DNA of 64,000 nt, taken from NCBI GenBank assembly GCA_947380295.1, contig CANCQK010000001.1, forward strand, positions 210,144 to 274,143. Direction: 5' to 3'. The position numbers and the translations under genes are program-made. Source of the stretch: Bdellovibrionales bacterium. Its GTDB lineage: Bacteria > Bdellovibrionota > UBA1018. Positions 48,418-49,959 of this stretch are shown one piece after another. The first letter of the stretch is position 1; every line of letters begins with the position of its first letter. Below the pieces are notes generated by a model, which searched no databases, was not told the DNA's origin, and saw nothing but the letters and a program-made list of their open reading frames with translations.

Positions 48418-49959
48418 TTGAAAAGCCAGTTTGTGAAGTTGTACCGGTGGAGAGCAATTGAAAACCAAGGAGAATTCGGCGTGTTCATTGATTTTAAGAA
48501 ACAAGTTCTGACGGCCTCGCTGAGGCGCCTTGTAGTGATCTTTTTTCTCGCACTTTTCGGAGTTACGTCAGGGCAAGATGCTCAGGCTGGAAAAGAATGT
48601 GTGTCTTGTTTTAGCTCGGTCACTGATCAAGCGATCAAAAAGCGAAGTGTCCTCTGCTGTAAACACGATCATGTCATCGATCGTTCTTGTTTAGTTCATC
48701 AGTTAGGTTCCATCGACTGTCTTGAGGAGGTTTTGGATCTCGGATTGCGATGCGGAGGACGGGCTTCTGATGGTCGCGCCTGTGATGAACGATTTTCCCT
48801 CTCAAAAGTCTATCGTGCTTTACATCAACGTGACAGAAAAGCTTTTAAGGAACGGATCGCACTGGCTTCTGCGCCAATGGATCCGGCCCAATTTGAGGTG
48901 GAAGTCAGCAATTTAAAGCAGAGAATTCAAGATGCGTTCGTGTTGAGCTGTCCGGTGGAGGGATGCGGAAATCCGCTGGACCGAATTGAGGGATGCAATG
49001 CAGCTCAATGTTCGCATTATTCATGCCGGCAAACCTTCTGCTATTTGTGTTTAGTCAAGCAATCGAGCCAGGAAGAAGCGCATTCGCATGTTCGAGATGT
49101 TCATAGCGGTACTTTTTGGGAGTACCGACCCGGCTACTTAGATCGTTATCACTATCTTCTCGTCCGAAAAAATCTCATGGAAGTATTTCGGTTGAAAGTA
49201 CATCCTGCGGTGAGAGCTGCTGCGATCGATCAGCTCAAGCCACTTCTTGTCGAAAAAAAGATGGTGCCATTTCCGGCCGGAGTGAAATTAGAGCTATGGA
49301 TCGGCGAACTCGAGTCTTCCGATCTGAACCCCGAGCAGAAAATCGAGATTCTTCAAAACGAGGCCATCCATCGACTCAATACAGGCGACGAGCAGGGCTT
49401 TGAAGCTCTTGAGAGTGAGATCACTCAACTCGGTGGAACGGCTCTGCGAACTTTAGATCTGCCGTCGGAACCGCGGCCTACCATCGCTGCCCAAGATGAG
49501 CTGTTTCATGTGGAACGAGGCCGTTTTTATGTCAGACAGGTTCCTTACGTTTCCTACATGCATGGAAACGGGGAAGACGATGTATTTCAAACGCTCAATT
49601 GGCAACGAGATGGATGGATTTTTTGGGGCCCACTTTTCACCGCAGAAGGTGACTTGCGCTTCGCACGCGAGAGGTGTCGTGATGCAGGGGGACGGCTACC
49701 TACTCATCATGAGCTTTGGGCTTTGGCAAGGGCACTCGGCGCTACAGACCCAGAAAGGGGTGATTTCAGCGGTCTTGATCCTTACCGACTGCCGGACCTG
49801 CATTCGGAATCTCTCTGGGGGTATACCCCAGAATTCTATGAGGATGGCTTTGAACGCGATGGTCGAGTCTATGTGATGGATTCCATGACGGGAATCGTGA
49901 CTGATTTGACCGACGACTGGGATTATGGCCAATCCCGGTTTAGATGCATCTACGAATAG
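48418..49959 (+). CDS. Membrane-anchored/secreted protein with an RBR-like zinc-finger module (canonical RING2/Rcat) and a C-terminal FGE/SUMF1-like domain
   Basis: Hydrophobic anchor LVVIFFLALFGV. Cys/His-rich RING1-like segment CVSCF...LCCKHDHVIDRSC. Rcat-like CPVEGCGNPLDRIEGCNAAQCSHYSCRQTFCYLC (compare HHARI-type C-P-x-C-x3-IEKxGGCNHMxC-x2-C-x3-FCWxC). C-terminal GGRLPTHHELWALA...RFRC resembles the FGE-sulfatase fold motif GxRLPTEAEWEYA. Confidence 0.5.
   Translation: MKSQFVKLYRWRAIENQGEFGVFIDFKKQVLTASLRRLVVIFFLALFGVTSGQDAQAGKECVSCFSSVTDQAIKKRSVLCCKHDHVIDRSCLVHQLGSIDCLEEVLDLGLRCGGRASDGRACDERFSLSKVYRALHQRDRKAFKERIALASAPMDPAQFEVEVSNLKQRIQDAFVLSCPVEGCGNPLDRIEGCNAAQCSHYSCRQTFCYLCLVKQSSQEEAHSHVRDVHSGTFWEYRPGYLDRYHYLLVRKNLMEVFRLKVHPAVRAAAIDQLKPLLVEKKMVPFPAGVKLELWIGELESSDLNPEQKIEILQNEAIHRLNTGDEQGFEALESEITQLGGTALRTLDLPSEPRPTIAAQDELFHVERGRFYVRQVPYVSYMHGNGEDDVFQTLNWQRDGWIFWGPLFTAEGDLRFARERCRDAGGRLPTHHELWALARALGATDPERGDFSGLDPYRLPDLHSESLWGYTPEFYEDGFERDGRVYVMDSMTGIVTDLTDDWDYGQSRFRCIYE

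Follow-up and report, generated by a model that had tools for sequence, protein, structure and literature searches.

What is the product of a gene that, on the chromosome of a Bdellovibrionales bacterium, appears to place two rings of a eukaryotic-type ubiquitin ligase behind an export signal and in front of a lectin-like domain? The gene lies at 48481–49959 of a 64,000-nucleotide stretch of contig CANCQK010000001.1 (assembly GCA_947380295.1), referred to here as the window. To our knowledge, RING-between-RING (RBR) ligases are regarded as having arisen in eukaryotes (and giant viruses), and all characterized members carry an in-between-RING (IBR) domain between RING1 and the catalytic Rcat domain. 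It is very probable that the protein described here is an exported homolog of this class in which RING1 and Rcat are joined with no IBR and are followed by a C-type-lectin-like domain (CTLD). On balance, we lean toward the reading that it is an exported, lectin-targeted, thioester-forming ubiquitin ligase of the RBR class, which would act with ubiquitin-charged conjugating enzyme (E2~Ub) of eukaryotic origin.

An open reading frame (ORF) is present on the forward strand at 48418–49959, and its translation matches the one quoted in the initial annotation of this DNA. The maximal frame begins with TTG at 48418 and encodes 513 aa; its residue numbering is used throughout, and all features of the gene given below are on the forward strand. 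A ribosome-binding-site-like AAGGAG at 48466–48471 lies 9 nt 5' of a GTG at 48481, and a public database protein (P0001) of identical sequence begins at this same GTG and comprises 492 aa. Since both point to GTG 48481, the real gene most likely spans 48481–49959 and yields a 492-aa product.

A word-indexed search retrieved five homologs only, and a repeat with their alignment added none. An exhaustive hidden Markov model (HMM) search, in which a profile of residues 55–350 was run against 1.84 billion representatives, returned 248 proteins at E ≤ 1e-3, 54 of these at E ≤ 1e-30. Conservation counts given below refer to a 57-member family alignment. The same 57 sequences supported an AlphaFold2 (AF2) model with a predicted local distance difference test score (pLDDT) of 85.5 and a predicted template modeling score of 0.65; an alignment of 5 sequences had given an unusable pLDDT of 49.

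Rcat, or RING2, occupies 48940–49107 (residues 175–230) and includes the segment CPVEGCGNPLDRIEGCNAAQCSHYSCRQTFCYLC. C178, C183, C198 and C203 are the predicted ligands of a first zinc site, and C208 and C211 with two of H222, H224 and H229 those of a second, leaving Cys193 free. The pattern is that of an Rcat and not of an IBR, because it consists of seven cysteines and two or three histidines with one cysteine superfluous for zinc. This residue, Cys193 (codon 48994–48996, motif EGCNAA), is the predicted catalytic, thioester-forming cysteine and is kept in 55 of the 57 members; C178, P179, C183, C193, C198, C203, F207, C208, C211, H222, H224 and H229 are each found in 53–56, and the Cys/His pattern far exceeds chance expectation. 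When the family profile was compared with the Protein Data Bank (PDB), the isolated RING2/Rcat of ARIH1 (1wd2) matched at E = 3.1e-6; for full-length ARIH1 the E-values were about 2e-5 to 5e-5. In the resulting alignment the family's GC193N falls on the catalytic GC357N of ARIH1, and on the serine of the C357S entry 2m9y, while the IBR region of ARIH1 contributes only a negligible 1.5-bit segment. On these sequence grounds the Rcat assignment is genuine and Cys193 is its predicted catalytic residue. The canonical Rcat motif described in the initial annotation is thereby borne out: its ligands persist across the family, RBR folds are retrieved, and HMM and structure searches assign the cysteine clusters to RING ubiquitin-ligase (E3) and RBR families.

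The Cys/His-rich, RING1-like stretch noted at the same time also held up, as a domain at 48592–48798 (residues 59–127) with the pattern C61-x2-C64-x16-C81-x3-H85-x2-[D/H/C]88-x2-C91-x20-C112-x9-C122. The predicted cross-brace pairs are C61 and C64, C81 and H85, D88 and C91, and C112 and C122. Seven of these positions are invariant, and position 88, the fifth ligand, varies among Asp (18 members), His (18) and Cys (11), with Asp in the window protein; such alternation would be expected of a metal ligand and not of a disulfide partner. A sub-profile of RING1 alone retrieved RING E3s as 50 of its 53 PDB matches, RNF24 first (E = 1.1e-3), then RNF4, TRIM32 and others, at marginal E-values. The domain is collinear with the RING1 ligands of ARIH1 in the profile alignment and is modeled at pLDDT 91–97. 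Its first loop, where the C-x-[I/V/L]-C of RBR ligases holds a hydrophobic E2-contact residue, reads C-V-S-C (Val62, Ser63) in the window protein, as it does in the two proteins closest to it.

Between RING1 and Rcat lies a 47-aa linker (48799–48939, residues 128–174), modeled as three helices (128–134, 137–151 and 156–173) at pLDDT 94–98. No IBR is present in this interval, which holds no conserved Cys or His in the 57-member alignment. The shorter cysteine cluster first taken for a possible degenerate IBR consists of C112 and C122, which are instead the last RING1 ligand pair, since the RING1 pattern and the ARIH1 profile alignment both place them there. The protein thus contains a complete cross-brace RING1 joined to Rcat without an IBR.

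Structural comparison agrees with these assignments. In a Foldseek search of the PDB with the AF2 model, ranks 1–19 were all RBR ligases or IBR-type fingers, among them RNF216 (8eb0, E = 2.4e-3, probability 0.99), parkin, HHARI and EMI1, with HOIL-1 also among the RBR-ligase matches. In BFVD the top seven matches, led by one at E = 6e-6, were all RBR-type or RING-type proteins of giant viruses. Since the root-mean-square deviations (rmsd) are high, single modules match and not their mutual arrangement. Rcat is followed by a family-specific helical domain (49108–49461, residues 231–348) with the motifs WExRPGYxDRYHW, KMWPxPAG and ELLQNE, which is as conserved as the catalytic module and modeled at pLDDT 93–98. 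Its first part is common to the eukaryotic relatives described below; residues 229–348 have no sequence relative in Pfam or the PDB. By its position, and by analogy with accessory domains after Rcat in other RBRs, a regulatory or ubiquitin-binding role is possible. The profile alignment also pairs an RY with the beginning of the Ariadne domain in ARIH1, but this resemblance was too weak to be used.

ARIH1/HHARI (PDB 1wd2, 4kbl, 5udh) gives the family profile its best sequence match and resembles the family in the order of RING1 and Rcat, the aligned GCN, the collinear RING1 and the presence of a helical region after Rcat. It differs in having an IBR, a His two residues past the catalytic Cys (+2 His), and UBA-like and Ariadne domains, the last without detectable similarity to the helical domain of the family, and in lacking both signal peptide and lectin domain. 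HOIL-1 and RNF216 (PDB 7yui, 8eaz, 8eb0) likewise have an IBR, carry other accessory domains and are cytosolic eukaryotic proteins; their match is confined to single modules, at high rmsd.

The N-terminus, first described as a hydrophobic anchor or signal, reads FKKQVLTASLRR-LVVIFFLALFGV-TSGQDAQA/GKEC. A predicted Sec-type signal peptide extends over 48481–48588 (residues 22–57), with a K/R-rich n-region, a hydrophobic core free of charges (LVVIFFLALFGV) and AQA ahead of GKEC; RING1 begins three residues past this junction. The basic n-region, hydrophobic h-region and small residues at −3 and −1 are those of a protein predicted to be exported by Sec. By eye the arrangement is family-wide, often as xFA/GK or xYA/GK, and a crude rule-based scan placed a signal-type segment in 37 of the 42 members with a full N-terminus versus 8 of 68 eukaryote-type relatives.

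At the other end of the protein, 49573–49956 (residues 386–513) encodes a CTLD of the Lcl_C/DUF1566 type, with an RLPT motif and the cysteine pair C420/C510. This 128-aa domain is modeled at pLDDT about 79–93, and structure searches identified a C-type-lectin fold, with matches including invasin/InvE and animal CTLDs; the nearest structures are Legionella Lcl-C and Bdellovibrio Bd2740. The RLPT...RC motif is conserved in the family, as are C420 and C510 wherever the CTLD is present, which suggests that the two may form the usual CTLD disulfide. The window protein itself has no Pfam match to PF07603 (threshold 34.9 bits) or PF03781. Relatives give recurrent sub-threshold Lcl_C matches of 13.6–23.7 bits across almost the whole 117-position model, and FGE-sulfatase matches that are short and limited to the RLPT motif. 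Because family C-termini vary among Lcl_C (18 members, best E = 4.5e-34), FGE-sulfatase (2 members, E = 1.8e-14) and Fib_succ_major (1 member), the C-terminus is an exchangeable lectin-like module, here of the short Lcl_C type. In a related locus (L009, 8001–12412), a 975-aa family member with several Lcl_C domains is followed by two stand-alone Lcl_C genes, an arrangement that suggests local shuffling of lectin modules.

The C-terminus had been likened to both FGE-sulfatase/SUMF1 and C-type lectins. The lectin fold is upheld by structure; FGE-sulfatase membership was rejected, the domain being 128 aa against a 255-position PF03781 model that it does not match. These corrections bear on the version of the protein with which the analysis started, a canonical RBR with a degenerate IBR and an FGE/SUMF1-like domain, one of two regional paralogs. 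Its RING1 and Rcat were confirmed, the RLPT motif is common to FGE-sulfatase proteins and two family members carry a true FGE-sulfatase domain, but it is refuted in its details by the RING1 ligand assignment, the ARIH1 alignment and the structure matches, and we now consider it very improbable.

The export signal and the CTLD raise the main rival explanation: that the protein is an extracytoplasmic adhesin or binder of a bacterial predator, whose CTLD binds prey or host glycans and whose RING1-Rcat is a cysteine-rich scaffold or protein-binding module that transfers no ubiquitin. The signal peptide throughout the family, the probable conserved CTLD disulfide, the lack of ubiquitin or E2 genes nearby and a host lineage known for predation on bacteria are all consistent with such a role. 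So are the extracellular binders nearest to its CTLD: Bd2740 forms the Ca-independent C-type-lectin-fold adhesin tip of a Bdellovibrio fiber (PMC10769870), and Lcl-C binds sulfated glycosaminoglycans on eukaryotic cells (PMC11162425). Both the Legionella Lcl C-terminal domain (PF07603, PDB 8q4e) and the Bd2740 tip (PDB 8oks), however, sit as adhesins on collagen-like or trimeric fiber stalks, whereas the CTLD here is attached to an enzyme-like module. The non-ligand Cys193, kept in 55 of 57 members in an EGCN context identical to that of catalytic Rcat motifs, argues against a mere scaffold, and the alternation of Asp, His and Cys, together with His, at ligand positions speaks for metal and not disulfides. 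For these reasons we regard the adhesin as rather unlikely.

Proteins of non-bacterial type make up the weaker matches (E about 1e-9 to 5e-5) obtained from the representatives. Pfam places IBR_1 in 43 and IBR in 22 of 68 such outside relatives, along with ankyrin, protein kinase and WD40 domains. Two of them come from a dinoflagellate and a green alga (Polykrikos EP00927_P030001 and Tetraselmis A0A061RI72), and the contigs of two more carry eukaryote-like genes, among them DM10, EF-hand, DnaJ, Roc and a DEAH helicase. In 56 of the 68, RING1 is followed by a Cys-free stretch of about 65 aa and then CPxC...GC.A..C...FCxxC...(D)AHxH. A profile of the protist relatives matches the window protein collinearly over residues 60–306 with 115 bits, a score that is partly circular since the sequences were chosen by family similarity; an adhesin scaffold would need no such collinearity of RING1, linker and Rcat with eukaryotic enzymes. 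Two loci (L010 and L011) and proteins P0085–P0157 bring to light a sizeable, apparently uncharacterized protist and algal family with the IBR-less RING1-linker-Rcat-(D)AHxH layout; no published function was found for any of these relatives. They are alike to the bacterial proteins in this layout, as giant-virus RBR-type ligases are in being the top BFVD folds. They differ in being often fused to ankyrin, kinase or WD40 domains, in having neither a signal peptide (8 of 68 in the crude scan) nor a lectin domain, and in lacking the KMWPxPAG and ELLQNE part.

Because the nearest relatives outside the family are eukaryotic, a mis-binned protist gene or chimeric assembly might account for the locus. 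This is exceedingly improbable: the gene shares its contig with bacterial genes on either side (HhH-GPD glycosylase, valS, FKBP, O-antigen), a Shine-Dalgarno site precedes it, its product carries a signal peptide of bacterial type, and homologs occur on bacterial metagenome-assembled genome (MAG) contigs of up to 1.68 Mb, with the HhH-GPD neighbor kept in one of them (L005, 71% identity). A scan of one genome per species located seven loci in four MAGs, all labeled Bacteriovoracaceae or Oligoflexia (Bdellovibrionota); the closest relative, at 60% identity, is in a Bacteriovoracaceae MAG. Three paralogs are present in one MAG and two in another. One of the latter two (L008, 10001–11555, Oligoflexia MAG CAVWVI01) is split into two frames by a frameshift, which reflects either pseudogenization or a fault in the assembly. 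Plasmid and phage collections contained no match to the family. We infer that the bacterial clade probably derived from the protist IBR-less RING1-Rcat family by horizontal transfer and gained its signal peptide and lectin domains.

These data have led us to propose a model of an exported effector in which a Sec signal peptide, RING1, helical linker, Rcat with Cys193, helical domain, flexible linker and CTLD follow one another along the chain. If it works as its RBR homologs do, RING1 would be the docking site for E2~Ub, Cys193 would take over the ubiquitin in thioester linkage, and a target captured through the CTLD would finally receive it. The enzyme would be released, and would most likely act on or in a ubiquitin-containing eukaryotic cell, such as a protist or algal host or prey. 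The E2~Ub is attributed to that cell because no ubiquitin or E2 gene lies near the window gene or its related loci, no operon-like partner is evident at either, and the proteins carry signal peptides. In this model the effector family would have been acquired horizontally from the protist proteins and expanded in Bdellovibrionota. Ubiquitin-ligase activity, eukaryotic target, delivery route and direction of transfer are thus inferred from homology and context.

The proposed logic is that of known bacterial E3 effectors (RING or U-box in NleG/LubX, HECT-like in SopA/NleL, NEL in IpaH/SspH, and SidC), which hijack host E2~Ub, several of them via a catalytic Cys (PMC7971504, PMC8003559). The classes treated in reviews of such effectors are RING/U-box, HECT-like, NEL and SidC, none of them RBR-type (PMC7971504, PMC8003559). 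The known effectors differ from the protein described here in being secreted by type III or IV systems, with no Sec signal peptide, and in coming from pathogens of animals or amoebae, not from Bdellovibrionota. Full-text literature searches of incomplete coverage turned up nothing relevant on bacterial or Bdellovibrionota RBR/IBR proteins or on IBR-less RBRs. We rate as new both the architecture in which this RBR-class module occurs (no IBR, signal peptide, lectin domain) and its host lineage.

Several observations weigh against a ligase. Structurally, the IBR of all characterized RBRs is missing, and the +2 His after the catalytic Cys is replaced by Ala195 in 50 of 57 members, the window motif being C193-N-A-A; this His is used by many RBRs, though not by all. 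The window protein alone scores 21.0 bits (E = 3.6e-4) with Pfam IBR (PF01485), under the gathering threshold of 24.3. The same model matches 38 of the 57 family members at E ≤ 0.01 (best E = 3.2e-7), so the family is linked by sequence to the Pfam IBR model although the window protein by itself falls below the cut-off. The window copy also departs from its family at Ser63, where Val or Ile, as expected for E2 contact, is usual (35 of 48), and at Tyr246 and Val283, two positions that are Trp in 53 and 54 of the 57 members. Ser63 recurs in the two closest relatives, which retain both Trp residues. The departures of the window copy may reflect relaxed constraint or specialization. As to delivery, Sec export would expose the 15 zinc ligands and the free catalytic Cys of the module to the oxidizing periplasm, no route into the eukaryotic cytosol is evident, and the window contains no secretion-system genes. 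Finally, the known relatives of these bacteria, whose lineage is best known for such predation, prey on bacteria, which have no ubiquitin.

The conserved catalytic Cys would also suit another modifier. Ubiquitin-like conjugation systems exist in bacteria, where they are normally operonic and cytoplasmic, and the protein might transfer a modifier other than ubiquitin, perhaps a bacterial ubiquitin-like protein (Ubl), together with a bacterial E2-like partner encoded elsewhere in the genome, and act in the periplasm or in bacterial prey; the absence of the +2 His of the RBR triad would fit a different chemistry. However, neither the window nor the sequence flanking eight related loci yielded a gene for the activating enzyme E1, for E2 or for a Ubl, and tblastn with human ubiquitin and UBE2D2 gave no match there. 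Apart from the HhH-GPD gene in L005, no neighbor recurs beside the homologs, and no operon-like partner gene exists at the window locus or the related loci, whereas bacterial conjugation systems are normally operonic. The family protein is exported and not cytoplasmic, and the RBR-type proteins nearest to it are those of eukaryotes and giant viruses. We accordingly judge the Ubl transfer enzyme to be improbable.

Returning to the ubiquitin ligase, a bolder form of it holds that the interchangeable lectin domains steer ubiquitin onto glycans, glycoconjugates or surface and lumenal glycoproteins of a eukaryote, by a Sec-exported IBR-less ligase that would be the first bacterial RBR-class family. 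It would resemble the action of HOIL-1, which ubiquitylates sugars, and of RNF213, which ubiquitylates lipid A. We consider this form unlikely; were it true, some Bacteriovoracaceae and Oligoflexia would have protists or algae, not bacteria, as prey or hosts. If the ligase is active in any form, bacterial E3s would gain a new class, one in which an E3 module is coupled to lectin-like domains for targeting, and unrecognized interactions between Bdellovibrionota and eukaryotic microbes would be indicated. Such activity would also mean that RING1 and Rcat can work without an IBR, providing a minimal RBR for mechanistic study.

The initial annotation had proposed two independent RBR-like proteins within this region, the second being a 734-aa exported ankyrin/RING-like protein encoded on the forward strand at 43061–45265. 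The first stands as described above; the second is an orphan outside that family, and is a doubtful RBR protein. It has a signal peptide, an Ank_2 match (E = 1.9e-7) and a sub-threshold IBR match (E = 0.0087) at residues 497–546. By eye, a RING1-like stretch and an Rcat-like CPHC...GGEC...C...C can be discerned, the latter without the second CxxC zinc site, with a C2H2-like CPLC...H...H motif between the two. Against the protist RING1-Rcat profile it scores 10.9 bits (E = 0.004 among the 308 window ORFs). Apart from ankyrin matches it has no homologs in 5.8 billion sequences, and a PDB search with its Cys-rich half retrieved nothing. A duplication relating the two RBR modules was considered and rejected (BLASTP E = 0.4, hhalign probability 8%). 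Nor did co-occurrence in other genomes emerge, the 734-aa protein being without homologs and the genes around it not being found beside homologs of the family.

Both genes belong to a run, at 41820–52217, of genes for exported proteins without family assignment. Bounded by a transaldolase-like gene on one side and FKBP/valS on the other, the run resembles a small island of secreted effectors. Besides the 734-aa protein, the start of whose gene overlaps the preceding stop by 4 nt, it comprises exported proteins of 414 aa (41820–43064), 616 aa (45696–47546) and 210 aa (50112–50744) and, on the reverse strand at 50769–52217, a clostripain-like Peptidase_C11 (E = 7e-17). PDB searches with the 414-aa and 616-aa proteins gave no match.

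The remainder of the window is ordinary bacterial chromosome, judged from its ORF list and a Pfam survey. The latter found housekeeping and polysaccharide genes only, among the 25 commonest of 56 families, so rarer families may be hidden. The gene content includes an O-antigen/polysaccharide cluster, the transaldolase-like gene, the HhH-GPD glycosylase, FKBP, valS, a large, putatively acyltransferase-like ORF at 55853–57598, and gpsA. Within the polysaccharide-biosynthesis region, the GC fraction at 24001–28000 falls to 0.38–0.43 versus 0.45–0.52 elsewhere in the window, which is typical of a horizontally exchanged O-antigen segment.

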